Source: Candidatus Nomurabacteria bacterium RIFCSPHIGHO2_02_40_30 (GTDB taxonomy: Bacteria; Patescibacteriota; Minisyncoccia; Phycocordibacterales; UBA9973). Taken from it: a stretch of DNA of 64,000 nt. The stretch is from positions 95,653-159,652 of the forward strand of contig MFTV01000016.1 of assembly GCA_001785445.1 (NCBI GenBank), read 5' to 3'. Positions 2,900-63,478 of this stretch are shown piece after piece. A model generated the notes under the pieces. The model was not told where the DNA came from. It saw only the letters and a program-made list of their open reading frames with translations, and did no database searches. Every line of letters starts with the position of its first letter. Within the stretch, counting starts at the first letter, position 1. The position numbers were made by a program, and so were the translations under genes.

Positions 2900-3171
2900 A
2901 GTTTTTTCTTTGTTTCTAATTTATAAACCCCGGAAGTAGGCAAACAAAAAGCCTGCAGCTAGGTTTAGTAGTCTTTCGACTACAAGTGTCCATTTCTGGC
3001 CACTGCTCGCTAAAGCAAATCCTAACTACAGGTTTTTTATGCTTTAGCGAGACTTATTCACCATGCTTTTATTTCTAAAAGTTTAGGTTACTTTCATATT
3101 AAGTTATTTATCAATAATACAACCTTTATCTAAAGGTAGCAAACCTTATAATTTCTAGCATCGCTGGGGAT

Positions 3172-4583: not shown

Positions 4584-4597
4584 TAGTTAACATTAAA

Positions 4598-4632
4598 TGG
4601 CGAGGTCATTATTGGCTTCGCCATTTTTTGTT
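4598..4632. terminator. bidirectional rho-independent terminator hairpin between convergent genes
   Basis: aaATGGCGAggtcattattggctTCGCCATtttttg: 7 bp stem with a T-run on one side and an A-run on the other. Confidence 0.5.
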
Positions 4633-13462: not shown

Positions 13463-15178
13463 ATGTTATACTTTAACATAATGGCTTTATTTGACGAAGA
13501 AAAACAGAACAAACAGCTGGACGACTTGCACAAGCAAGAAGAAGAGCAGTTGGTGGCAAGTCTAGCGCAGTCGAAATATAATTTGCCTTACATTGACTTA
13601 TACCGTCTTGGAATAGACAACGAAGCCCTCCGGGCAATACCAGAGAAAGACGCGAGAGCTATGAAAGTCGCCCCGTTTAAGCTTGTAGGGAAAAGCATTT
13701 ATATAGCCGTGCGCTCACCGTCGCCGGAGCTTTTAAGCAAGTTAAAAGAAGATATGGAAAGGAGAAACTTGGTGGCTGTTTTTTATATGGTGTCGATAGC
13801 CAGCTTAGAGAAAGTCTGGAGCAGGTATAAAGAAATTTCTATGGCTGAAAGTTCCCAAGTCGGCGGGTTGGAAATATCGCTCGAAATTTTGAAAGACACG
13901 GCTAAAAACATAAACCGCATGCAGGATATTGAGAAACTTATCAACGCAGCTCTGGAAGATAATAAAATTCATAAAATTTCTCGCATTCTTGAAATAATTT
14001 TAGCCGGAGCCATCGCTATCAAAGCTTCGGACATACACATAGAACCAGAGAAAGATAAATGCCGGCTAAGGCTTCGCCTCGATGGAGTGCTACAAGATGT
14101 AAATTTCTTTGAATCTGACGTGTACCAACTGCTGAATTCACGCATTAAACTTCTTTCCGGCATGAAATTAACTTCTAAGTTAGCCCAAGACGGGCGTTTC
14201 AATATTATGGAAGGAGAAGAAGAGATAAGTATTCGTAGTTCCTTAATCCCCGGGTCTTACGGCGAGTCAATAGTCATGCGTATCCTCGACCCGAAGGCTA
14301 TCCAAGTAAAATTTGAAGAGCTTGGTATCGAGCCTTATCTTTTTAAAATCGCTCAAGAAGAAATTGCGAAACCGAATGGTCTTATTTTAGTCACCGGACC
14401 GACAGGCTCCGGCAAGACTACAACTCTGTATGCATTTTTGAGAAAAATATACTCAACGGAAATAAATATAATAACAATTGAAGACCCAGTGGAATATCAT
14501 CTAGACGGCATAACCCAGACGCAAGTAAACTTGAAAAAAGAATACACTTTTCCGGAAGGACTTCGTTCCGCGCTCCGCCAAGACCCGGACGTAATAATGG
14601 TGGGAGAAATCCGAGACGGAGAAACTGCCGAAATTGCGGTGCAGTCTTCACTTACCGGACACATGGTGTTTTCTACGCTCCACACCAATAATGCCGCCGG
14701 AGTCATTCCTCGCCTTATCGACCTTGGAGTCAATCCGAAAATTTTAGTCTCAGCGCTTTCTTTGTCTATTGCTCAACGTCTGGTGCGCAAGCTCTGTGTT
14801 TTTTGTAAAAAAGAATCTATCCCAACGGGAGAAGAAGCCAAAACTATACAGACAATCTTAGAGGGCATGAAGGGGGAAGGAAAAGATTTGACAAAATATA
14901 ATATCAAAAACGAGGCGTCCTTTAAAATTTTCTCCGCTGTGGGTTGTGAAAAATGCAACAACATAGGCTACACTGGACGTATAGGCATTTTCGAAGCTAT
15001 CAAAACTGATGAGGCGATAGAAAAAATAATGCCGGAAAACCCAAGCGAGCGGGAAATCAAAAAAGTGGCTAGCGCGCAAGGAATACTCTCTATGCGCCAA
15101 GATGGTGTCATAAAAATTTTAAATGGGATTACTTCAATTGTAGAAGTGCAAAGCGTGGTAGACCTAAACGAGGAGTAA
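13463..15178 (+). CDS. pilB: type IV pilus assembly / type II secretion ATPase (PilB/GspE family)
   Basis: Walker A 'VTGPTGSGKTTTL', 'VGEIRD', 'FSTLHTNNAAG' and C-terminal Cys cluster 'CEKCNN'. The start may be at an internal Met (~13481). Confidence 0.9.
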   Translation: MLYFNIMALFDEEKQNKQLDDLHKQEEEQLVASLAQSKYNLPYIDLYRLGIDNEALRAIPEKDARAMKVAPFKLVGKSIYIAVRSPSPELLSKLKEDMERRNLVAVFYMVSIASLEKVWSRYKEISMAESSQVGGLEISLEILKDTAKNINRMQDIEKLINAALEDNKIHKISRILEIILAGAIAIKASDIHIEPEKDKCRLRLRLDGVLQDVNFFESDVYQLLNSRIKLLSGMKLTSKLAQDGRFNIMEGEEEISIRSSLIPGSYGESIVMRILDPKAIQVKFEELGIEPYLFKIAQEEIAKPNGLILVTGPTGSGKTTTLYAFLRKIYSTEINIITIEDPVEYHLDGITQTQVNLKKEYTFPEGLRSALRQDPDVIMVGEIRDGETAEIAVQSSLTGHMVFSTLHTNNAAGVIPRLIDLGVNPKILVSALSLSIAQRLVRKLCVFCKKESIPTGEEAKTIQTILEGMKGEGKDLTKYNIKNEASFKIFSAVGCEKCNNIGYTGRIGIFEAIKTDEAIEKIMPENPSEREIKKVASAQGILSMRQDGVIKILNGITSIVEVQSVVDLNEE

Positions 15179-15450
15179 AAAAGAAAAAAGCATTAATCTC
15201 TAAACAATCCTTTCGGAGCTGGGCCCCGAGAGTAACAAATTATTATAGGATAGACCCAGAAATTAATAAATTAATACCAGAACGTCCTATGCAAAGTCGT
15301 ATAACCGGTGGCTGATTGCTTAGAGATTAATGCCTTTTTAATCTCAACAGAAACTATTGTACTATAAAGAAAAAACTGTAAATGCTATAATGTGTATAGC
15401 TATGTTGATACCCTGTTGATAAACCTACCACTTTTATAATATAGCATATT

Positions 15451-17092: not shown

Positions 17093-17227
17093 ATGAGTTA
17101 CGACGAAGACGAGGAAGTGCGAGGAGGTTTTAGGGTAACTGATGGCGATGACGACGAGCCGATGGAGATGCCGCCAGAGGACTTGGATTTTGGATTAGAC
17201 GAAGAAGACCCGGACAGAGACAGCTAA
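17093..17227 (+). CDS. small highly acidic protein (44 aa, MSYDEDEEVRGGFRVTDGDDDEPMEMPPEDLDFGLDEEDPDRDS)
   Basis: ORF below the 60 aa track cutoff. It ends 1 nt before a strong terminator hairpin. No clear RBS. Confidence 0.3.
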   Translation: MSYDEDEEVRGGFRVTDGDDDEPMEMPPEDLDFGLDEEDPDRDS

Positions 17228-17262
17228 CAAAAGATGACTAGGCAAGACCTAGTCATCTTTTG
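17228..17262. terminator. bidirectional rho-independent terminator (hairpin ATGACTAGG-caag-CCTAGTCAT flanked by A/T runs)
   Basis: aaaagATGACTAGGcaagaCCTAGTCATctttt, between the convergent small ORF and tyrS. A near-identical hairpin is at 26031..26066. Confidence 0.6.
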
Positions 17263-17264
17263 TT

Positions 17265-22301: not shown

Positions 22302-23648
22302 TTATTTAAACAAAGTTCTTATTTTTTCTAGTTCTTGCAGTAGTTGGGGGTCATTTTTTAAATCTGCTTTAATTTTCAAGCATGAGTGTATGACTGTGGT
22401 ATGGTCTTTACCACCCAGCTTCTGTCCTATTAAAGGGTAAGAAACATTGAAATCTTCTCGAAGTAAATACATTACTATCTGTCTCGCTTTGACAATTTCT
22501 TTTTTTCTTGTTTTTTCGTAAATTGAGGCTTCTTCTAGTTGGTAGTTTTCAGCCACTAGCTTAACAACATCTTTTATTGCCATATTTTTCTTGGGTTTCA
22601 TGTTGTTTTTTAGCAAGTTTTTAACCTCGGGGAGAGTAAGAGTTCTGTTCTTAAGGCGGTACTGCATTACGAGTATGTTTAAAGAACCCTCAAGTTCGCG
22701 AATATTTCCCTCCACCGCAGAGGCGACGTACTCCACAATCTCCTTATCTAGTTCTATATTAAGCTCTTGCAGTTTAACTTTCAAAATTGCAAGACGAGAT
22801 TCGTACTCTGGCGGAGAGATATCGACAATCATCCCGGCGGCAAAGCGGGATTTTAGACGGTCTGCCAGCTCTGGAATGTAGTTGGGGTGTTTGTCAGAAG
22901 AAAAAATAATCTGCTTATTATTTTCATAAAAAGTGTTGAATGTATGGAAGAGTTCTTCTTGAATTTTTTCCATTTTACCAATAAATTGAATGTCGTCTAT
23001 GATTAATAGGTCGTATTTACGATACTTTTCTTTAAAGGAATTTGCTTTATTGTTTTGCAGTGAATTTATGAAGTCCGTGGCAAATTTTTCTAAGGTCATA
23101 TAGTGCACTTTTTTATTTTCGTGTTTCTCTTTTATGGTGTTACCTACTGCTTGGATAAGATGAGTTTTGCCAAGTCCGGTGGGGCCGTATATAAAAAACG
23201 GATTATACTTAGTTCCCGGACTGTCTATGATAGCTTGAGCCGCGGCGTAAGCCAATTCGTTGAAAGTTCCCACAATAAATGAGTTGAAGTGATAACGTGG
23301 ATTTAAGTTATCTTCCGGGTTGATGTATAAGTCTCTTAAAGGCAACTCCTTGTTTACATAAGTTTCCACAGAATTTTCTACTTCTTCCTGCTTAGTCGCC
23401 TCTATTTTCGTAATAGTGTATTCCACTGCGCGCATATTTTCGTAGGCATCGGCGATTGTTTTAGTAATAAGCTTGTGATACTTATTCATTAACCAGTCAC
23501 GAACAAATTCGTTGGGCACACCTATATAGATAACCCCAGTTTCCTCTTTTATAATTGATGTATTTTTGAACCAAGTACTGAAATTTGCCTTAGAGATGCC
23601 TGTTTCTATCTCACCTAAACAATTTTTCCAAAGCTGTTTCGTATTCAT
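22302..23648 (-). CDS. dnaA: chromosomal replication initiator DnaA
   Basis: AAA+ 'IYGPTGLGKTHL', 'LLIIDDIQF' and C-terminal DNA-binding helix 'GGKDHTTVIHSCLKI'. Confidence 0.95.
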   Translation of the reverse strand: MNTKQLWKNCLGEIETGISKANFSTWFKNTSIIKEETGVIYIGVPNEFVRDWLMNKYHKLITKTIADAYENMRAVEYTITKIEATKQEEVENSVETYVNKELPLRDLYINPEDNLNPRYHFNSFIVGTFNELAYAAAQAIIDSPGTKYNPFFIYGPTGLGKTHLIQAVGNTIKEKHENKKVHYMTLEKFATDFINSLQNNKANSFKEKYRKYDLLIIDDIQFIGKMEKIQEELFHTFNTFYENNKQIIFSSDKHPNYIPELADRLKSRFAAGMIVDISPPEYESRLAILKVKLQELNIELDKEIVEYVASAVEGNIRELEGSLNILVMQYRLKNRTLTLPEVKNLLKNNMKPKKNMAIKDVVKLVAENYQLEEASIYEKTRKKEIVKARQIVMYLLREDFNVSYPLIGQKLGGKDHTTVIHSCLKIKADLKNDPQLLQELEKIRTLFK

Positions 23649-23977
23649 CGCCCCATAGTATACTATTTAGCAAAGGAAGCAAAATTATAAAACTTACTAA
23701 CTATGTTGATAATCTGTGCAAAACTATTTTTCAACCCTCACAAATAACGGTTTTATATAAAAAGAGCAATTAGACAAATAATTTTCTTTCTGCTATACTA
23801 TTTATGTTGAAGTTTAAAAATTTATTTCTTAATTCACGTCGGGCTTAGGAGGATATTCCATATATTATGAAGTGTTCAAGAGAAAATGTAAGACGAAATT
23901 TTAAAATCTTAGTTAAAGTTTCCCGAAAAATTAATCCGCAAATATAGTGGCATATTCTTGTAAGCTGACCAAAGCTT

Positions 23978-25510
23978 ATGAGTATAACATTGATAACAAT
24001 TCTAATTAGCGCCGGAGCGCTTCTTTTGGGTGTTGGCATAGGGTATTACTTGCGTTTCATAATAGCCTTAGGCAAAAGAAGGTCTATAGAAATAGACATA
24101 AAACAAATGATGGTTGGCGCCAAAGAAGAGGCGCAGAAAATCACCGATGAAGCCAAAAAAGTATCCGAAGAAAAACTAGCCGAGTTAAAAGAAGAAGAAA
24201 AAAAGAAAGAACAAGGGTTTAAGGAAACAGAGAAAAGACTTATTAAAAAAGATGAGTTTTTGGATGCTCGACAAGTGGAAATAGACAAAGAAGTTGAAAA
24301 TATAAAAACCAAAGTAGAAGAAATAAAAAGGATTCAGGAAAAAGTTTTAAATACCGAGGCAGAAAAAAGAGCTGAACTCGAAAAAGTGGCACAACTCTCC
24401 GAAACTGAAGCCAAGGAAGAACTTCTAAGAGAAATCGAAAAGAAGTATGAAGAAGACTTAATGGTTCGTATTCAAAAGTTGGAGAACGGAAACCAAGAAA
24501 AACTTGAAAACCGCGCTAAAGACATACTGGCTACAAGTATTCAGCGCCTCGCGGCTAGTACGGCTTCAGAGCTAATGACAACAGTAGTGACTATCAGCAA
24601 TAATGAAATAAAGGGTAAGATCATCGGGAAAGAAGGCAGAAATATAAGGGCTTTTGAGCGAGCTTCCGGAGTGGAACTTATTGTGGATGATACTCCGGGC
24701 TCAATAATTATCTCCTCCTTCGATCCTATCCGCAGACAAATTGCCCGCCTTGCGCTAGAAAACTTAATTTTAGATGGACGCATTCAGCCGGCCAAAATAG
24801 AAGAACTGGTGGAAAAAGCAAAAGAAGAAATAAATAAAATAATTAAAGAAAAGGGAGAGCAAGCAGTCTATGAGTGTGGAATATTTAACTTCGACCCACG
24901 CATTGTGGCTATTATTGGACGACTTTACTTCCGCACCAGCTATGGGCAAAATGTTTTGCAACACTCCATAGAGATGGCTCACATTGCCGGCATGATTGCC
25001 GAAGAGCTTGGTGCTGATGTTGCTATCGCCAAAGCCGGAGCTCTCGTTCACGATATAGGAAAAGCCCTTACTCACGAGGTGGAAGGCACTCATGTGGAGA
25101 TAGGCATGCGAATCTTGCAGAAGTTTGGGGCCGATGAACGCATCATTACTGCCATGAAGAGCCATCACGAAGAATATCCTTACGAAACTATTGAGTCCAT
25201 CATCGTGCAGACTGCAGATGCAATCTCTGGTGGCAGACCAGGTGCACGCCGCGACTCAGTAGAGAACTACTTAAAGAGACTGCAAGAACTAGAAGCACTG
25301 GTAAATGCCTTTCCTGGGATTGAAAAGTCCTATGCCCTGCAAGCTGGTCGCGAAATCCGCATCTTCGTAACACCGGAAAAGATTTCTGATGCTGAAGCTA
25401 AGATAATGGCCCGTGATATTGCCCTAAAAATAGAGCAAGAACTAAAATATCCGGGCGAAATCAAAGTCACCATGATCCGTGAGACAAGAGTTATTGAGTA
25501 TGCAAGGTAA
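23978..25510 (+). CDS. rny: ribonuclease Y
   Basis: N-terminal TM, coiled coil, KH 'IIGKEGRNIRAFE' and HD 'HSIEMAHIAG...VHDIGK'. Confidence 0.95.
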   Translation: MSITLITILISAGALLLGVGIGYYLRFIIALGKRRSIEIDIKQMMVGAKEEAQKITDEAKKVSEEKLAELKEEEKKKEQGFKETEKRLIKKDEFLDARQVEIDKEVENIKTKVEEIKRIQEKVLNTEAEKRAELEKVAQLSETEAKEELLREIEKKYEEDLMVRIQKLENGNQEKLENRAKDILATSIQRLAASTASELMTTVVTISNNEIKGKIIGKEGRNIRAFERASGVELIVDDTPGSIIISSFDPIRRQIARLALENLILDGRIQPAKIEELVEKAKEEINKIIKEKGEQAVYECGIFNFDPRIVAIIGRLYFRTSYGQNVLQHSIEMAHIAGMIAEELGADVAIAKAGALVHDIGKALTHEVEGTHVEIGMRILQKFGADERIITAMKSHHEEYPYETIESIIVQTADAISGGRPGARRDSVENYLKRLQELEALVNAFPGIEKSYALQAGREIRIFVTPEKISDAEAKIMARDIALKIEQELKYPGEIKVTMIRETRVIEYAR

Positions 25511-25517
25511 AACCTCC

Positions 25518-25620
25518 AAAATATAAACTTTTTTCGGGTACAGATTTTTTGAAGCTTAAAAAATCCTGAAGTTTTCGCGCCGTCGCGCTCAAAACCCCCT
25601 TCAAAAGTTATATTTCAGAG
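25518..25620. repeat. ~100 nt intergenic repeat, copy A (second copy at 60598..60700)
   Basis: aaatataaacttttttcgggtacagattttttgaagcttaaaaaatcctgaagttttcg... is ~85% identical to copy B. It begins 8 nt after the rny stop. Contains hairpin cagatttttt-GAAGCTT-aaaaaatcctg. Confidence 0.6.
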
Positions 25621-25734
25621 GTTTTCTTGATTTATACATGCCCCTTGCCTTAAAAAAGCCTTGATATATAATGAATAGGTAGGAATTTAATGTGTTTTAA
25701 GGTCGAAATATTACAAATTTTTTCTTTTTAAAAT

Positions 25735-26007
25735 ATGAATAAACAAGCATTAGCTGAATGGGTACATGGAAAGCTAGGTGGCACAAAGGTGCAGGCTGAA
25801 GAAGTCGTAGACGGCATGTTTGAGGCTATCATCGGCACCTTGAAAAAGGGCGGTGAAGTATCAATCGCTGGCTTCGGAATCTTCTCTGTAAAGCAAAGAG
25901 CTGCTCGCATGGCTCGCAATCCGAAAACCGGAGAGCAAGTCAAAGTGGCTGCTAAGAGAGTTCCAAAGTTCCGACCGGCCAAAGGTTTGAAGGACACGAT
26001 TGCGTAA
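25735..26007 (+). CDS. hup: DNA-binding protein HU
   Basis: 'GFGIFSVKQRAARMARNPKTGEQV' arm motif. 90 aa. Confidence 0.95.
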   Translation: MNKQALAEWVHGKLGGTKVQAEEVVDGMFEAIIGTLKKGGEVSIAGFGIFSVKQRAARMARNPKTGEQVKVAAKRVPKFRPAKGLKDTIA

Positions 26008-29334: not shown

Positions 29335-29408
29335 ATATCTGAATTATATAACTAAACAAACAAAAAAGGCATGATGCCTTTTTTGTTTGTTATTCTTTTC
29401 ACCCATTG

Positions 29409-44295: not shown

Positions 44296-44490
44296 GGGTA
44301 GAGACCGAAGTCTCTCATATTAGTTTCCTAATATGGCCTGACGGACACCCCATATGATGGGTTCTTTATGTCCGTCAGGACTCTTTCACCATGCTATTGA
44401 AAAATCAATAGTTTAGGCTACTTTTAAAATATTCAGTTGTATCTATATAGTATTACTTGTCTAAAGAAATGTAAAATAAAGAGGTCATAA

Positions 44491-51074: not shown

Positions 51075-52103
51075 TTAAGCATAATAAGGTTCTATTTGTG
51101 GGACATCTATTAATGTGTAAGTCCTGCTATATGGACTTTTTACACTTAGCGGAACACCTTTTAGAAACAAAACTCCTCTGTGAGCCAGTGTCACTTCTCC
51201 TGGTTTAGGGTATGTTCCTCCACCAACGATAGATACGTAAGAAGATGTATGATGTGGAGCACGAAAAGGCGGAAAGCAAACCAATTCCCCTCGAATATTT
51301 CCTGCCACGGAGTGAATGCCTGTTATCTCCAGCACTTCTTCGGTACTTAAGTCTGGCAATAACCCAGAGAATACTCTGGCCAGCATGGTCTTGCCTGTGC
51401 CCGGCGGGCCATACATGGCTATGTTGTGCCCGCCGGCAGCCGCTATCTCGAGCCCGCGCTTGGCGCCTTCTTGCCCTCTGATATCAGCGAAATCCCCGCT
51501 CTGATTCTCTTTGGTTTCTTTTTTATAATTTATTTTAGTTCTTGGCTGAGGAATAATTTTCTTCTGTTTACGTTCCGGATTTTTTGTTTCGTCAATATGC
51601 GAAATAACGTTTTTGAGGCTTTCAGCGCCAAAAATTTTTATACCTTCCACTAAGGCTGCTTCCACTGCATTTTCTTTCGGCAAATATATTTCTTCGTAAC
51701 CTTTTCTCTTTGCTTCTTCCGCCAAAGGCAATGCCCCACGAATACTACGCAGTGTGCCGTCAAGACCAAGCTCGCCAAGGAAAATTTTTTTTTCTGAATT
51801 AAATTTAATTTCTCCTGCTGATTTTAAGTAGGCCATAGCGATAGCCAAATCGAAAAACGGTCCTTCTTTCTTCAGGTCAGCCGGCGAGAGCGACACGGTG
51901 ATTTTCTGATTTTTAGCCTTAGGAGATTTATAACCGGAATTCTTTATGGCCCCACTTACCCTGTCTTTCGACTCGTCCACAGCTTTGTCCGGCAAGCCCA
52001 CCACAGAAAAAGTATGTAGACCTTTCGACAAGTCTACTTCTATGGTCACGATAGCTCCTTTTAACAAATTTACTTGTGCTGAATAAACTTTAGCAAAGCT
52101 CAT
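51075..52103 (-). pseudogene. comM: 5' (N-terminal) fragment of comM/yifB; comM-derived part is 51162..52103 and the last 28 codons are read-through into the inserted element
   Basis: Lon-like N-terminal domain, Walker A 'IAMYGPPGTGKTML', '...RAPHHTSSYVSIVGGGTYPKPGEVTLAHRGVLFL', then unrelated 'KGVPLSVKSPY...*'. Confidence 0.8.
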
Positions 52104-52104
52104 T

Positions 52105-52461
52105 TTAATTTTCTAAGTGTTTCTTGCAGGTTCGAGCAGCAGGGTTCGCTTCTAGGCGGGCTATCTCAATATCTTTTTTACATACTTCGCATTTGCCGAA
52201 AGAATCTCTATTTAGTCCCTTGAGCGCCTTCAGAATATTATTAAGTCTTGGTTCCAATGTTCGGAGCATTGAGCTTCGAGCTTCGAAGTCCTCAAATCTG
52301 TCGGCCATGTCGTTTTGGTCTGACTCCGGGATGTCTTGCTCTTCTGGAGTAGCCTCCCATTCACCTGTGTCAGTATTCAATTTCCCCATGTCGCGCAATT
52401 CTTCAAGCAGAATGTCCCTTTCTATCTCTAATTTTTCTTTTATTTTTTTCTTATCTAACAT
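52105..52461 (-). CDS. DksA/TraR-family C4-type zinc-finger protein
   Basis: Coiled-coil N-terminus and 'CEVCKKDIEIARLEANPAARTC' resembling the DksA/TraR zinc finger. Confidence 0.65.
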   Translation of the reverse strand: MLDKKKIKEKLEIERDILLEELRDMGKLNTDTGEWEATPEEQDIPESDQNDMADRFEDFEARSSMLRTLEPRLNNILKALKGLNRDSFGKCEVCKKDIEIARLEANPAARTCKKHLEN

Positions 52462-58900: not shown

Positions 58901-60589
58901 TTGAGTTCTATGCAAAAGACTTGCCAAACATGCAAAAAAGATTTTGAGATAAGAAAAGAAGACCTTATTTTTTATGAGCAGGTAAAAACAGTGCCACCAC
59001 TTGATTGTCCGGATTGTCGTGTCATGAAGCGCCTCGCCTTCAGAAACGAAAGAACATTTTACAAAAGATCTTGCGACCCATGTAAGAAAGATATTATTTC
59101 TTTATATCCGAAAAGTAGCCCATACCCTATCTACTGTAATACATGCTGGTGGAGTGATAAATGGGATCCAAAAAGTTTTGCTCAAGATTACGACTTCAAG
59201 AAAACTTTTTTTGAACAATACAGAGAGCTACAAATAAAAGTGCCTCGTTTGGCATTGATGATGCTTAATTCCGTGCGAAGTGAATATACAAATGGCGCAT
59301 CAGACAACAAGGATTGTTATTTGATTTTCGCCGCCGAATACAACGAAGACTGCATGTATAGTAGGCTCATTCAAAAATGCAAAGGATGCATTGATTGTGC
59401 CTTTATTCACCAATCTGAGCTTTGCTATGAGTGTATAGATGTTCGTGAGTGTTTCAAATGCATGTTCTGCCAAGAATGCCAGTCATCGACTGACTTAATC
59501 TTCTGTTACAATATGCGTAATTCAAACAATTGTATTTTTTGCACAAATGGCAGAAATCTTTCCAACGCAATTTTCAATGTAAAATACTCAAAAGAAGAGT
59601 ATGAGAAAAAGAAAAATGAAATTTTCTCAAGTTATGAAAATCTTGAAAAGGCAAAAAAAGAATTTAAAGATTTAAAGAGTAAGACAATAGTAAAATATGC
59701 TTCTGCCACAAAATGCAATAATGTGACCGGCAATTATCTGCACAATTGTTATGATGGCGTAAGGGTTTTCGATACCACAGGTACAAAAAATTGTTCCTAC
59801 ATGGCTGACACCGAAGAATCCATAGATAGCATGGATTGTAATAATTTTTATTACAAAAATGAACTCTGCTACAACATGATGGGAGTGCTCCAGAGTAGTA
59901 AATCCAAAAATTGCGCATACGTGTTTTATTGCAACGAAGTTGAATACTCAGAAAATTGTCACAACCTCGCAAGTGGGATAGGATGCAATGCAATACGCAA
60001 AGGGCAATACATGATTCTCAATAAAGAATATTCCAAAGAAGATTTTTACAAAATCAAGGAACAGATTGATGAACAAATGAAAAAGGATACAACATATGGG
60101 AAATTTTTCCCGCCCGAACTAGCACCTTTTGGTTTTAATGAAACTCTCGGGTACGAATACTTCCCCATAAATGAAAAAGAAGCAAAAGAAAAAGGTTTTA
60201 ACTGGCAAGAACAAGTGACTGGCACCTATGGCAAAGAAACAATAAAAGAGCCGGAGATGCCAGCGACTATTGGTGAAGTTACAGAAGATATTTTGAATCA
60301 GGTTTTAGTTTGCAAAGATTGTAAAAAGAATTTTCGCATTACAAAGGGAGAATTTGATTTTTATAAAAGGATGAATCTGCCTCTTCCCCACAAAGACTTC
60401 GAGTGCAGGCATCAAGATCGCATGAAGAAAAGAAATCCGCGCAAGCTTTGGCACCGAAATTGTATGTGTGAACTCAAAACTCACCAACATGGCGCCCAAA
60501 AATGCGCTAACGAATTCGAAACCTCCTACTCCCCCGATAGAAAAGAAATAGTCTACTGTGAGACCTGCTATCAGCAAGAAGTTTCCTAA
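58901..60589 (+). CDS. cysteine-rich protein with duplicated N- and C-terminal zinc-ribbon modules and central Cys-periodic repeats
   Basis: N-terminus 'CQTCKKDFEI..FYEQV...CPDC...CDPC...YCNTC' parallels C-terminus 'CKDCKKNFRI..FYKRM...C...NCMC...YCETC'. The middle region has ~9 aa CxxC repeats and ~13 aa 'NC' repeats. Confidence 0.6.
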   Translation: MSSMQKTCQTCKKDFEIRKEDLIFYEQVKTVPPLDCPDCRVMKRLAFRNERTFYKRSCDPCKKDIISLYPKSSPYPIYCNTCWWSDKWDPKSFAQDYDFKKTFFEQYRELQIKVPRLALMMLNSVRSEYTNGASDNKDCYLIFAAEYNEDCMYSRLIQKCKGCIDCAFIHQSELCYECIDVRECFKCMFCQECQSSTDLIFCYNMRNSNNCIFCTNGRNLSNAIFNVKYSKEEYEKKKNEIFSSYENLEKAKKEFKDLKSKTIVKYASATKCNNVTGNYLHNCYDGVRVFDTTGTKNCSYMADTEESIDSMDCNNFYYKNELCYNMMGVLQSSKSKNCAYVFYCNEVEYSENCHNLASGIGCNAIRKGQYMILNKEYSKEDFYKIKEQIDEQMKKDTTYGKFFPPELAPFGFNETLGYEYFPINEKEAKEKGFNWQEQVTGTYGKETIKEPEMPATIGEVTEDILNQVLVCKDCKKNFRITKGEFDFYKRMNLPLPHKDFECRHQDRMKKRNPRKLWHRNCMCELKTHQHGAQKCANEFETSYSPDRKEIVYCETCYQQEVS

Positions 60590-60597
60590 TAATTTCA

Positions 60598-60700
60598 AAA
60601 ATACAAACTTTTTTCGGTACGGATTTTTCGAAGCTTGAAAAATCCTGAAGTTCTCGGCTCGTCAGCCTCGAAACCCCTTCAAAAGCTTTATTTTTGAAAT
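60598..60700. repeat. ~100 nt intergenic repeat, copy B (see 25518..25620)
   Basis: aaatacaaacttttttcggtacggatttttcgaagcttgaaaaatcctgaagttctcg... begins 9 nt after the stop of the Cys-rich gene, between convergent genes. Confidence 0.6.
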
Positions 60701-60703
60701 TAA

Positions 60704-62266
60704 CTACTTCCTCACTCCATGTTTTTTATGCAGTTTTGTGACTTCTTCTTCTTCGAGTTCATCTTTTTTTTCTCTACCACGCTCGCCGAGAGCTTTTAAT
60801 TCTTGGTCGTCAAGCATGTTCAGAGACTTTACCAGTTCAGATAAATGTTCCACTGTATTTTTTTCCGGAGCATCGAGTACTTCTTCAAGTAATGCATGGA
60901 GCATCCACCCCATTCTTGGTCCCGCTTTAATGTCTAGCTCTTTAATCATGTATTCTCCATTAATTTTTAGCTGTCCTACGGATATAGGGTCGCGGAGGGC
61001 CTCCTCTATCATGGCATGATACTTACGCAAACGATACGAAGTCTCTTTTTTATTTGTGCCGACTCTGTCGCACTCACGCAAATTCATAAGTGACCAAATG
61101 TTTTCTTCCCCAATTTTTGTAATAATTCTACGAACAGCGGAAAGTGTAATTAATTCCGTGTCAGAGAAAAACATGTGGTAACGAACTAATTTTTCCACCA
61201 GTATAATTTCTTTATTAGAAAATTTTAGTCGCTCCATTATTTTTTTAGTCATGCGGGCGCCCACAACTTCGTGGCCGTAGAATGTGTATTGTTTTTTAGC
61301 CAAATCTTTTGCTGACTTCACCTCTCTCTGCCTTTTAGTTTTTGGTTTTCCCACATCGTGAAAAAGAGCCGCAAGTCTTATAGATAATGGCCAGTTTTTA
61401 TCTGCTGCGTGTTGCAAAGAATATAGCGCATGATTCCACACATCGTAAGCATGCTCCCCAGACTGGTCGCAACCTATTCCCTCCTCGAGTTCCGGTATTA
61501 TATTTTTTAGTAAATTCAATTTTTGAAGCATAACAATTCCAGTAGCAGGGTTTGCAGACATTACTATTTTTACCAATTCCTCACGAATTCTTTCTCCGGA
61601 AATTTCTTTTATTAAATCTGAATTTTTTACAATACTTTCAGTTGTTTCCTGTGAAATAGAGAAGTCAAGTTGGACGGAAAAACGCACTGCTCGAAGCATC
61701 CGGAGAGCATCTTCCTTGAAACGTGCATCAGGGTCTCCTACTGCTCGCAGCACTTTGTCCTTAATGTCCTTTATACCATCATATATGTCCATTACAGAGC
61801 TTTTTCTATAAGCTATGGCGTTTACTGTGAAATCACGCCTCTTTAGGTCATCTTCAAGTTTATCACTAAATTTAACCTCGTCAGGGTGTCTAAAGTCAGT
61901 ATATTCTGCTTCAATTCTATATGGAGTAACTTCTACAATCACATATTCTAGTGTTTCATGAATAACATTACTATTAGATGTTTCACGCGAAACGTTTTCA
62001 GTAAGTGTTTCACGATTAACATCTCTAGGGATACAAACACCTACCGTGCCGAAAGTATTCTCGTATACAGTCTTCTCAAAAAGGCCAATAATTTGTTCGG
62101 GCTTAGCATTTGTAGTTACATCCCAGTCTTTGGGCTCCCTGTCCATAAGCATATCCCTTACACAGCCACCGACTAGGTAGGCATCAAAACCAGCTTTTTC
62201 TAATATATCTGTTACATGTGAAACTTCTGGGGGTATTTTATACGATAGGTCTTTTTTTATCTCCAT
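60704..62266 (-). CDS. cca: CCA-adding tRNA nucleotidyltransferase with HD domain
   Basis: 'YLVGGCVRD', 'RRDFTVNAIAY' and HD 'LAALFHDVGKP'. The start is taken at MEIKK (62266), because the longer ORF would run through the tRNA-Arg gene. Confidence 0.9.
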   Translation of the reverse strand: MEIKKDLSYKIPPEVSHVTDILEKAGFDAYLVGGCVRDMLMDREPKDWDVTTNAKPEQIIGLFEKTVYENTFGTVGVCIPRDVNRETLTENVSRETSNSNVIHETLEYVIVEVTPYRIEAEYTDFRHPDEVKFSDKLEDDLKRRDFTVNAIAYRKSSVMDIYDGIKDIKDKVLRAVGDPDARFKEDALRMLRAVRFSVQLDFSISQETTESIVKNSDLIKEISGERIREELVKIVMSANPATGIVMLQKLNLLKNIIPELEEGIGCDQSGEHAYDVWNHALYSLQHAADKNWPLSIRLAALFHDVGKPKTKRQREVKSAKDLAKKQYTFYGHEVVGARMTKKIMERLKFSNKEIILVEKLVRYHMFFSDTELITLSAVRRIITKIGEENIWSLMNLRECDRVGTNKKETSYRLRKYHAMIEEALRDPISVGQLKINGEYMIKELDIKAGPRMGWMLHALLEEVLDAPEKNTVEHLSELVKSLNMLDDQELKALGERGREKKDELEEEEVTKLHKKHGVRK

Positions 62267-62277
62267 TGACTTTTCCG

Positions 62278-62352
62278 TGGTGCACCCGGCAAGACTCGAA
62301 CTTGCAATGACAGTTCCGAAGACTGTTGTGATATCCATTTCACTACGGGTGC
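62278..62352 (-). tRNA. tRNA-Arg(TCG), CCA encoded
   Basis: GCACCCGTAGTGAAATGGATATCACAACAGTCTTCGGAACTGTCATTGCAAGTTCGAGTCTTGCCGGGTGCACCA. All four stems pair. Anticodon loop CTTCGGA. Confidence 0.85.
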
Positions 62353-62481
62353 AGAATTAATTAATAATCTATGTATTTTACACTATTTTTAAAATGTTGG
62401 CAAATAATGCTTATTTTACAAGCTATTTTTGCAATTGCATTAGTTTATAAAAAATAATATAATAAAAAAGTATTTTTCTTT

Positions 62482-62552
62482 GCGGCCATGGTTTAATGGT
62501 AGAACGAGTGGTTGCCAATCATTCGGTGGGAGTTCGATTCTCCCTGGCCGCA
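62482..62552 (+). tRNA. tRNA-Gly(GCC)
   Basis: GCGGCCATGGTTTAATGGTAGAACGAGTGGTTGCCAATCATTCGGTGGGAGTTCGATTCTCCCTGGCCGCA. Anticodon loop TTGCCAA, T-arm GGGAG/CTCCC. Confidence 0.85.
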
Positions 62553-62852
62553 CAAATATGATGTCCCTTAGTTGTACCCTTGCTTTTAAAGGTTTTATTG
62601 AAATCTGTGGATAACCATGTTGGTAATGTTTATAAAGGACATCATGAAAAGTTGTCTTTTAGGACAAAAATAGCTAAAATATGTTGCTAAATAAGAATTA
62701 TTTTGTAAAAGACATAAAGTTGCTTATAATTGTTTCATGTGAAACAATTATAAGCATGTTATTCGTGAAACATTGATATACTTGTCCCGTACTAAATTTT
62801 TGATTAAAATAAATAACCACTATGATTAAAAGTTTAAAATTTTAGTACTGGG

Positions 62853-63260
62853 ATGCCTAAAGTATTTACTTCGGAGACACAAAAGACAGGAGAAATTGGA
62901 GAAAACATAGCTGTTAAGTTTCTCGTGAAACAGAGTTTCTCAATACTAGAGCGAAACTACACTAAAAAATGGGGTGAGATAGATATAATAGCTAAAAAGG
63001 ACAAAAAACTCTATTTTGTAGAGGTCAAAAGTGTTTCTCGACCTGACCTCGAGAATGTTACTCGTGAAACATTAGATCAATATCACCCAGAGGACAACAT
63101 GCACCCGTGGAAGTTAAAAAGACTCTCAAGGACAATTCAGACTTATCTTTTGTCTAAAAATCTGGATGATATAGAGTGGCAGGTAGATTTGCTGGTTGTT
63201 TTTTTGGACTTAAAGGGGAAGAAAGCCAGGATAAAAGTAGTAAGTGATATTATTCTGTGA
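62853..63260 (+). CDS. yraN: YraN/UPF0102 family endonuclease
   Basis: 'GEIGENIAVKFL...ILERNYTKKWGEIDIIAKK...LYFVEVKS' (PD-(D/E)xK core of YraN). Confidence 0.8.
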   Translation: MPKVFTSETQKTGEIGENIAVKFLVKQSFSILERNYTKKWGEIDIIAKKDKKLYFVEVKSVSRPDLENVTRETLDQYHPEDNMHPWKLKRLSRTIQTYLLSKNLDDIEWQVDLLVVFLDLKGKKARIKVVSDIIL

Positions 63261-63280
63261 TATATTAGAGCGTGCGAACA

Positions 63281-63351
63281 CGGGCTGTCGTATACCGGTA
63301 GTACGTCTGTTTTGGGAACAGATAGACTGGGTTCGATTCCCAGCAGCCCGA
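63281..63351 (+). tRNA. tRNA-Pro(TGG)
   Basis: CGGGCTGTCGTATACCGGTAGTACGTCTGTTTTGGGAACAGATAGACTGGGTTCGATTCCCAGCAGCCCGA. Anticodon loop TTTGGGA. Confidence 0.85.
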
Positions 63352-63366
63352 CAGTTTTTTGATTTT

Positions 63367-63437
63367 GCGGGATTAGTTTAGTGGTAGAATAAGAGTTTTC
63401 CAAACTCTGGGCAGGCGTTCGATTCGCCTATCCCGCA
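63367..63437 (+). tRNA. tRNA-Gly(TCC)
   Basis: GCGGGATTAGTTTAGTGGTAGAATAAGAGTTTTCCAAACTCTGGGCAGGCGTTCGATTCGCCTATCCCGCA. Anticodon loop TTTCCAA. Confidence 0.85.
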
Positions 63438-63478
63438 CAGAATCTTTTATTTATTAAACAATAAACAAATACAAAATT

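Follow-up and report, generated by a model that had tools for sequence, protein, structure and literature searches.

In the window, as we call the whole 64-kb stretch of DNA that was analysed, two copies of an element of about 115 nt are located at gene ends. Copy A (25509-25625, 117 nt; identified from sequence, covariance model and fold) lies between the stop codon of rny and the hup promoter, and copy B (60590-60702, 113 nt) lies between a plus-strand gene for a Cys-rich protein and a minus-strand gene of the CCA-adding/poly(A) polymerase family. The first-pass annotation had pointed out two look-alike stretches at 25518-25620 and 60598-60700, directly after rny and after the Cys-rich gene, and both were found at these positions. 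Their similarity holds, although the ~85% identity given for them is 83% over the same coordinates and 79% when the full elements are aligned. The limits of ~100 nt were too narrow. Flanks of about 20 nt on each side, AAAACCTCC...GGAGGTTTT in copy A and TAATTTCAAAAATA...TATTTTTGAAATTA in copy B, pair within each copy although their sequences are unlike, and for this reason the element was widened to the coordinates given above. It begins at, or one base past, the stop codon and not 8-9 nt beyond it: copy A starts within the stop codon of rny (TAA, 25508-25510), and copy B starts one base past the stop codon of the Cys-rich gene (TAA, 60587-60589). At its other end, copy B stops 1 nt short of the stop codon (60704-60706) of the minus-strand gene; thus, the two convergent genes have their stop codons 114 nt apart, and copy B occupies all of this spacer.

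Both copies fold on both strands far better than their dinucleotide shuffles (z from -3.9 to -6.6; for copy A, -5.9 on the plus and -6.6 on the minus strand). In copy A, inverted-repeat, folding and pair-count analyses define a closing stem, P1, whose 5' arm AAAACCTCCAAAATATAAACTTTT (25509-25533) pairs with the 3' arm AAAAGTTATATTTCAGAGGTTTT (25603-25625). Based on the alignment, the junction GGG at 25536-25538 pairs with CCC at about 25597-25599; an extra G in this junction and an extra C co-occur in copy A and in its ortholog at the rny site of locus L017. The internal hairpin described earlier is indeed present in both copies, copy A having the form CAGATTTTTT-GAAGCTT-AAAAAATCCTG and copy B the GGATTTTTC...GAAAAATCC form. 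This hairpin, P2, was delimited from sequence and folds as AGATTTTTT / GAAGCTT loop / AAAAAATCC in copy A (25542-25566) and as GGATTTTTC / GAAGCTT / GAAAAATCC in copy B (60621-60645), with a compensatory change from T:A in A to C:G in B. Base 25542 of copy A is an A variant, which gives an A.C mismatch on the plus strand and a G.U pair on the minus strand. The GC-rich segment that had been noted after this hairpin is a second hairpin, P3, with fully compensated stems. It reads TTT-TC-GCGC-CGTC-GCGC-TC-AAA in copy A (25572-25593; sequence and covariation) and TTC-TC-GGCT-CGTC-AGCC-TC-GAA in copy B (60651-60672; sequence and pair counts), so that GCGC/GCGC and GGCT/AGCC differ and yet are complementary in each copy.

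Several features of the surrounding DNA were recorded. The dnaA gene is on the minus strand (22302-23977), with dnaN beyond it and a gap of 329 nt between dnaA and rny; this layout indicates that the window probably spans the replication origin, which would place copy A ~1.5 kb from it. The plus-strand gene upstream of copy B (58901-60589) codes for a 562-aa protein that is very rich in CxxC pairs, matches no Pfam family at E <= 0.001 and has paralogue-like relatives of 32-47% identity in loci L020, L024 and L044. Beyond copy B, four tRNA genes, Arg-TCG on the minus strand and Gly-GCC, Pro-TGG and Gly-TCC on the plus strand, lie at 62278-63438. Since this cluster begins inside the 5' end of the CCA-enzyme ORF (60704-62338), the start of this ORF is probably over-extended.

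A repeat family of Nomurabacteria and Paceibacterota

A search of the 64-kb window returned copies A and B only. The first-pass annotation had proposed a family specific to this lineage; it had named a copy count and a covariance-model search of the hairpin as ways to check it, and the existence of these two copies alone, with no compensatory substitutions, as what would speak against it. An exact two-anchor pattern was scanned against the GTDB species representatives and gave 36 true loci in 26 Nomurabacteria/Paceibacterota/Minisyncoccia assemblies, with up to five matches per genome, and one chance match in a Thiodiazotropha genome. A second pattern, anchored on another part of the element and scanned against JGI metagenomes, gave at least 120 stretches. 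The covariance model, built from 29 copies, identified 44 copies in the genome loci and 95 copies in 80 metagenome loci, that is, at least 139 model-confirmed copies in the DNA examined, including diverged forms and a second subfamily; it matches copy A at 25510-25629 with 115.4 bits and copy B with 132.4 bits. The window itself belongs to a Candidatus Nomurabacteria bacterium, in line with the name under which its RNase Y is recorded, and its locus is also found in GCA_001786145.1 and GCA_003488805.1. Both the pattern scans and the model thus give a large family beyond the window, present in 26 assemblies and in many metagenome contigs, which excludes chance, and the covariation of paired positions is very strong; both observations named as speaking against the family are thus contradicted. 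That the two window copies are a recent local duplication without a wider family has next to no probability: the count of two within 64 kb would fit it, but the many copies in other genomes and metagenomes already refute it, and copies A and B belong to different P3 subtypes.

The copies thus form a family of interspersed palindromic repeats, ~115 nt long, that is restricted to CPR bacteria of the Nomurabacteria/Paceibacterota. Its density is about one copy per 30 kb (window and loci L041-L045), and about one gene end in thirty carries it. Rfam 15, searched over the whole window at the gathering threshold, returned two LOOT RNAs and five tRNAs only; a permissive scan of 25450-25750 gave chance-level matches (E of 2 to 6, far below gathering scores), and ARAGORN reported five ordinary tRNAs and nothing else. 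No description of the element was found in the searchable literature. It is a previously uncatalogued element, of a kind already known but in a form absent from Rfam. The first pattern had no match in the viral contigs of IMG/VR, by which a phage origin was ruled out. A small protein-coding ORF was also rejected: five of the six frames contain stop codons, separated single-base insertions in copy A and L017 break the remaining open frame, and P3 has changed in a compensatory and not a synonymous manner.

The copies share a Y-shaped fold in which a long closing helix, P1, encloses a conserved and asymmetric core of two hairpins, the A/T stem P2 and the G/C stem P3. P1 has about 22 bp, almost purely Watson-Crick, and its base usually reads 5'-AAA...TTT-3'. 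Its outer 8-14 bp vary from copy to copy, while the inner 8-10 bp are semi-conserved within subfamilies, typically as AAAATCAAAC...GTTTATTTT with a bulged C. P1 is followed by a small internal loop and a helix of 2-3 bp, CGG/CCC. P2 is a 9-bp stem with the loop GAAGCTT, which is swapped in some copies for CTGGTG-like loops or insertions of 40 nt. P3 contains a conserved 2x2 internal loop and is closed by a conserved CGTC loop. Whereas the stems covary, there is almost no variation in the junction sequences or the P3 loop. In the 44-copy alignment, standard pairs fill 95% of the cells and 32 of the 40 pairs have changed on both sides, with 308 double-changed cells versus 88 in shuffles. None of 500 shuffles matched the observed value on any of five measures, and shifting the partners by one column abolished the signal. 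In the 95-copy alignment, the column pairs with the highest mutual information all belong to P1 or P3, and no tertiary or pseudoknot covariation was found outside the helices. Unguided RNAalifold recovered the Y shape on either strand.

Variants of this architecture were also observed. In L024 (5356-5505), the P2 loop is replaced by a GC-rich insertion of ~40 nt, AGTCGCACCAAAAGGACTTGCGCGACATGATTCCGCAGAATC, and similar expansions occur in L066, L084, L110 and L114. The second subfamily (L018 1198-1312, L029 2163-2277, L100 4412-4527, L109 4839-4943 and L122 51-166, all on the minus strand) retains P3 with its CGTC loop, as well as an A/T hairpin whose loop is of the CTGCTG type, with different junctions, GCACG...CTCGTG...CAAG; its L029 copy has a GC-rich closing stem with A4/T6 runs.

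Gene-end positions and flips at orthologous junctions

In both orientations, the copies fill the interval from a stop codon to the next gene. Stop codons are mostly located -10 to +20 nt from the element edges, often within the 5' arm, and most copies have the 3'-end location of intrinsic terminators. Based on simple ORF calls, about 38 copies lie between convergent genes and about 10 between divergent genes; between tandem genes, where the plus orientation is commoner, about 35 copies are co-directional with the upstream gene and about 12 are opposed to it. A bias with respect to GC skew (32 vs 12) vanishes once the strand of the neighbouring gene is considered, and an orientation tied to the direction of replication was rejected.

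Between tandem genes, the second gene begins at a distance of 20-40 nt from the core, with an extended -10 box a few bases before its ATG. Just 3' of copy A, the hup promoter TTGCCT-16-TATAAT (25645-25672, plus strand) is kept in L041 and L042, and its presence indicates that the rny transcription unit ends at copy A. Up to a distance of 60 nt, extended -10 motifs directed away from the element were counted next to 12 of 126 copies per side and motifs directed towards it next to only 5 of 126, and a motif scan of the core identified no promoter-like site or other directional signal. A promoter of its own was ruled out by these outward-facing neighbours and the promoter-free core, so the element would be transcribed only by read-in from neighbouring genes. 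The first-pass annotation had considered a structured 3'-UTR element, a small-RNA gene or a MITE-like repeat. An independent small-RNA gene disagrees with promoter-like sites that point away from the element, while the 3'-UTR option fits the gene-end position and the covarying fold; a 3'-UTR element of the plus strand only is nevertheless too narrow a picture, since both orientations occur and copies have flipped in place. The MITE-like option fits as well, as the orthologous junctions show.

We compared these junctions by protein and flank similarity. Presence or absence of the element differs at at least eight of them, as in MITEs, and at three the element is flipped in place. At the rny site, the window copy is in plus orientation with respect to rny, and the L017 and L041 copies are flipped, with homologous arms; there is no element in L042/43, where only the rny-side arm is left, nor in L044/45. 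The ortholog of copy B, between the Cys-rich and CCA-enzyme genes, is flipped in L012, and a third site has opposite orientations in the genomes of L013 and L015 and no element in L023. One stable site, 3' of a gene for an R3H-domain (Jag-like) protein (BLAST and Pfam), has a single orientation in five genomes (L004, L027, L033, L024 and L038). Presence or absence also varies 3' of pyrH, of map, of an RNase J-like gene and of smpB, just before ssrA, and at a dksA-like junction. In the window, the latter is an empty site, an 8-nt spacer between two minus-strand genes (52103-52111), and the element is present in the related L099 and L111. As for the smpB site, a sequence GGGGATG(A/C)AAGGCATAGACAG directly after smpB (L014 2545-2600, L034 2500-2560) looks like the 5' end of tmRNA (ssrA), and in L014 an insertion of the element separates smpB from this putative ssrA.

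Such polymorphism is also what would be expected of selfish, non-autonomous, MITE-like DNA that is tolerated at gene ends only, has no host function and depends on a transposase encoded elsewhere. Some insertions split genes that formerly overlapped or were spaced by 8 nt. At the dksA-like and map junctions, the copies of different genomes are unrelated in their arms and unlike in P3 type, which points to independent arrivals, and near-identical full-length arms are found at non-orthologous loci. Short direct repeats flank the insertions at smpB-ssrA (CAAAAT) and at the dksA-like site of L111 (ATTAT(T/C)), and the adjacent inverted pairs of the two subfamilies in L100 and L109 resemble BIMEs. 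Nevertheless, target-site duplication is not consistent across the other insertions, with no direct repeats at window copies A and B, L006 and L018a, and the termini are the least conserved part of the element, the opposite of inverted repeats recognised by a transposase. No transposase adjoins any copy inspected in these partial genomes, and viral contigs hold no copy. Furthermore, the retention of orthologous copies across species, the conserved core and the compensated stems indicate constraint rather than decay. We consider a purely selfish origin of this kind unlikely.

Two routes of insertion were also considered. Insertion into the loop of a pre-existing terminator was rejected as a general rule, since the sites without the element at pyrH-map, smpB-ssrA, the dksA-like junction and rny are free of any corresponding hairpin. 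The sequences of L042 (rny site) and of L014/L018a suggested that the second arm may be formed on insertion by inverted copying of the flank; this route was unsupported at smpB-ssrA and the dksA-like site, and arms that are near-identical over their full length were found at loci with no relation to each other.

The flips invite a reading at the level of DNA, with the element as a hairpin or cruciform site for recombination, replication or topology, or as an invertible switch whose arms recombine. The orientation is independent of transcription, the arms are almost purely Watson-Crick, and three orthologous sites show an in-place inversion of the core together with the proximal arms. However, the core has no promoter or other directional signal to flip, and inward -10 motifs, as a promoter-bearing invertible segment would require, are as rare as 5 of 126 copies per side. 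The inverted repeats are unlike at each locus, which would not be expected of the sites of one invertase, and the orientation follows neither GC skew nor the majority gene strand when the neighbouring gene is accounted for. Additionally, a 70-bp segment is very short for recombinase-mediated inversion. A DNA-level site is thus a highly improbable explanation.

Constraint on the core and a proposed role at transcript ends

At the rny site, orthologous cores are 82-94% identical, compared with 42-51% at the third codon positions of rny; the cores differ from one another only in the P2 loop and at P3 pairs with compensatory changes. Conservation so far above synonymous sites means that strong purifying selection or homogenisation must act. 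Genome-specific variants were also found: all six copies of JAPLXU01 have A at the first P2 position (variant A43), three of them being orthologous to G-bearing copies elsewhere, and both copies of L018 have a GAAGTTT loop that is absent from the ortholog of one of them. These variants indicate homogenisation, or co-evolution with a common partner.

The helices of the genome set contain 1613 Watson-Crick cells, 14 plus-strand G.U cells and 32 A.C cells, a near purity that fits selection on both strands or correction of palindromes at the DNA level. Over all copies, A.C mismatches, which are G.U pairs on the minus strand, number 115, versus 45 plus-strand G.U pairs; these counts are not independent, since subfamilies inherit mismatches, and one subfamily has, in 17 copies, a conserved A.C within an otherwise perfect helix. 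The excess of A.C persists where the element is co-oriented with tandem genes. The minus-strand counterpart of the UC/UC loop of P3 is a tandem G.A/A.G, and the minus-strand fold is the more stable in 29 of 34 copies, with a consensus better by ~9 kcal/mol. This preference conflicts with the higher number of copies whose plus orientation is co-directional with the upstream gene (about 35 vs 12).

These strand differences, together with the near-invariant junctions and P3 loop, the covarying stems and a core conserved far above synonymous sites, are the case for a dedicated structured RNA, in which a three-way-junction core would be recognised sequence-specifically on one active strand, probably the minus strand, and termination would be secondary. 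Such an RNA could be, for example, a protein-binding or processing signal freed from 3' UTRs by cleavage of the long stem, and the same base changed in six of six JAPLXU01 copies is what co-evolution with one partner would produce. Against it, the element occurs in both orientations relative to the only available transcription and flips at orthologous sites, and such sites are often without it. Its P2 loop is replaceable, insertions of 40 nt are tolerated, and it has no match to an Rfam family or known motif. We regard a dedicated RNA as possible but doubtful.

The outer end of P1 is terminator-like. In its outermost 3-4 pairs, A (5'):T (3') is found in 22-34 of the 44 copies, versus T:A in 5-9, while the mid-stem pairs have no A/T polarity. 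An A-run, a stem and a T-run read alike on both strands, which is the design of a bidirectional intrinsic terminator, and many copies have T4-T7 at the end of the 3' arm. In a test for a directional U-tract, the two sides of the element did not differ: beyond the palindrome, the mean is 3.1 T in 8 nt on either side, with no excess in the direction of transcription. What we take as the best evidence for the role of the slot comes from the rplT-LOG junction, where L018 and L014 have the element and L034 has, between the same A- and T-runs, a canonical bidirectional terminator, AAAAAATCCCC-ACTC-GGGGATTTTTTTT; the element is thus replaced by an ordinary terminator.

Other observations argue against a simple terminator. 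The closing stems are AT-rich, and with no additional T-run many copies would be weak terminators by E. coli rules; a scan with a terminator consensus did not call copies A and B. Some copies are found at junctions where, in related genomes, the two genes overlap (pyrH-map) or are separated by 8 nt, and full termination at pyrH-map would cut off the downstream gene. No more than about one gene end in thirty has the element. Most terminators of the window genome are plain hairpins, so the core is not needed for termination, and a pure hairpin function leaves the near-invariant junctions and the CGTC loop unaccounted for. The bias of mismatches and folding energy towards the minus strand speaks against this reading as well.

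The usual intergenic hairpins of the window genome appear to be long and AT-rich. Those at 29355-29391, 62721-62756, 17226-17264 and 4589-4632 have 17-20 bp, perfect or near-perfect, and loops of 1-5 nt. A second kind of terminator in this genome consists of short GC hairpins with T-runs, for example behind both LOOT RNAs (RF03000), which are located on the minus strand at 2968-3089 and 44300-44419 (76.7 and 85.7 bits, respectively); these canonical hairpins indicate that the organism uses ordinary intrinsic terminators. Another structured insert within a terminator-like stem was observed at 15184-15339, directly 3' of a gene for a type II/IV secretion ATPase (13463-15178). Its outer stem, AAAAAAGCATTAATCTCTAAACAATC / GATTGCTTAGAGATTAATGCCTTTTT, has 26 bp with 92% complementarity and encloses ~104 nt of GC-richer sequence, and it has no Rfam match even at E = 1.

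Considering all of the above, we favour, with a probability of about one half, the reading that the element is an interspersed palindromic repeat like REP, ERIC and TRIT, which works as a bidirectional transcript-end hairpin and spreads like a small mobile repeat. Transcripts entering from either side would fold the long P1 helix, which the compact two-hairpin core would allow to close over a 'loop' of ~70 nt, and the folded helix would end the transcript or protect its 3' end, as a bidirectional intrinsic terminator does. The family would persist via duplication, insertion and homogenisation of copies, as in REP, ERIC and MITE repeats. The arms may be kept complementary since both strands must fold, or by correction of palindromes through template switching, or both. 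A shared trans-acting partner and gene conversion are candidate causes for the conservation of the core sequence.

A more speculative extension, which we consider distinctly unlikely, is that the Y core is the recognition module of a trans-acting CPR system, with the minus strand as the active one. Such a system could consist of a termination or processing factor that binds RNA, or of an enzyme acting on nucleic acids by which the repeats are copied and homogenised, and inversion of the core in place would decide whether the upstream transcript carries the active or the inactive strand. If so, gene ends would carry, in the element, a switch that works over evolutionary time or even by phase variation.

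The genomes of CPR/Patescibacteria are tiny, with almost no spare DNA, and their transcript ends and non-coding elements are little known. That ~115 nt per site are kept far above synonymous positions in dozens of uncultured species indicates that something maintains the element. RNA-motif databases gain a new and very well-supported family, and the element is a candidate lineage-specific terminator or transcript-end module that is testable in vitro. It is also a tractable case for studying how palindromic repeats of minimal genomes maintain the perfect pairing of their arms, invert at a site and undergo concerted evolution. A dedicated binding factor, should there be one, would be a new component of the CPR gene-expression machinery.

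Comparison with known systems

LOOT RNA is the other multi-copy CPR RNA in the window and, like the element, is found in several copies per genome in the same organisms. However, LOOT is unrelated in sequence and structure and has its own terminator and an apparent promoter, whereas the element has neither. Canonical bidirectional intrinsic terminators share with the element the A-run, stem and T-run and the position between convergent or tandem genes; in the element, the loop is a structured core of ~70 nt and the stem is long and AT-rich instead of short and GC-rich.

The REP/BIME and ERIC sequences of proteobacteria are short non-coding interspersed palindromes of transcribed intergenic gene ends, found in either orientation and sometimes as adjacent inverted pairs. 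They are present or absent at orthologous sites and are credited with roles in termination and mRNA stability. The element resembles them in being a gene-end palindrome in either orientation, in its inverted pairs and in its polymorphism at orthologous sites. REPs have 20-40 nt and a conserved GTAG and are tied to RAYT transposases, and ERIC is conserved throughout its ~127 bp. In contrast, the termini of the element vary by locus and its interior is invariant and branched; it is ~115 nt long, is without a GTAG head, and shows no RAYT link at the loci inspected in partial genomes.

Correia/NEMIS, RUP and Coxiella MITEs are ~100-150 bp long, fold into a long hairpin, lie near gene ends and are polymorphic between relatives, and they can act as terminators or processing sites. 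The element is like them in size, foldability into a long hairpin, insertion at gene ends and polymorphism. MITEs have conserved terminal inverted repeats and regular target-site duplications, whereas in the element the terminal parts are the most variable, no terminal inverted repeat is common to all copies, and direct repeats are found at two insertions only.

The Tuberculosis Rho-independent terminator motif (TRIT) of mycobacteria, described in the RNIE paper (PMC3152330), is a lineage-restricted hairpin with conserved sequence and structure and many copies per genome. It is located at or overlapping stop codons and is largely bidirectional, and its authors inferred a possible extra recognition factor (PMC3152330). 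TRIT is a simple palindromic hairpin of a GC-rich actinobacterium, whereas the element has an asymmetric two-hairpin core and a variable stem and belongs to AT-rich CPR bacteria; with another taxon, another core and no relation in sequence, it is not a member of TRIT. The likeness is functional only and consists of lineage restriction, conservation of sequence and structure, placement at stop codons and bidirectionality; by this analogy, the mycobacterial TRIT motif can be taken as the closest published analogue of the element in behaviour.
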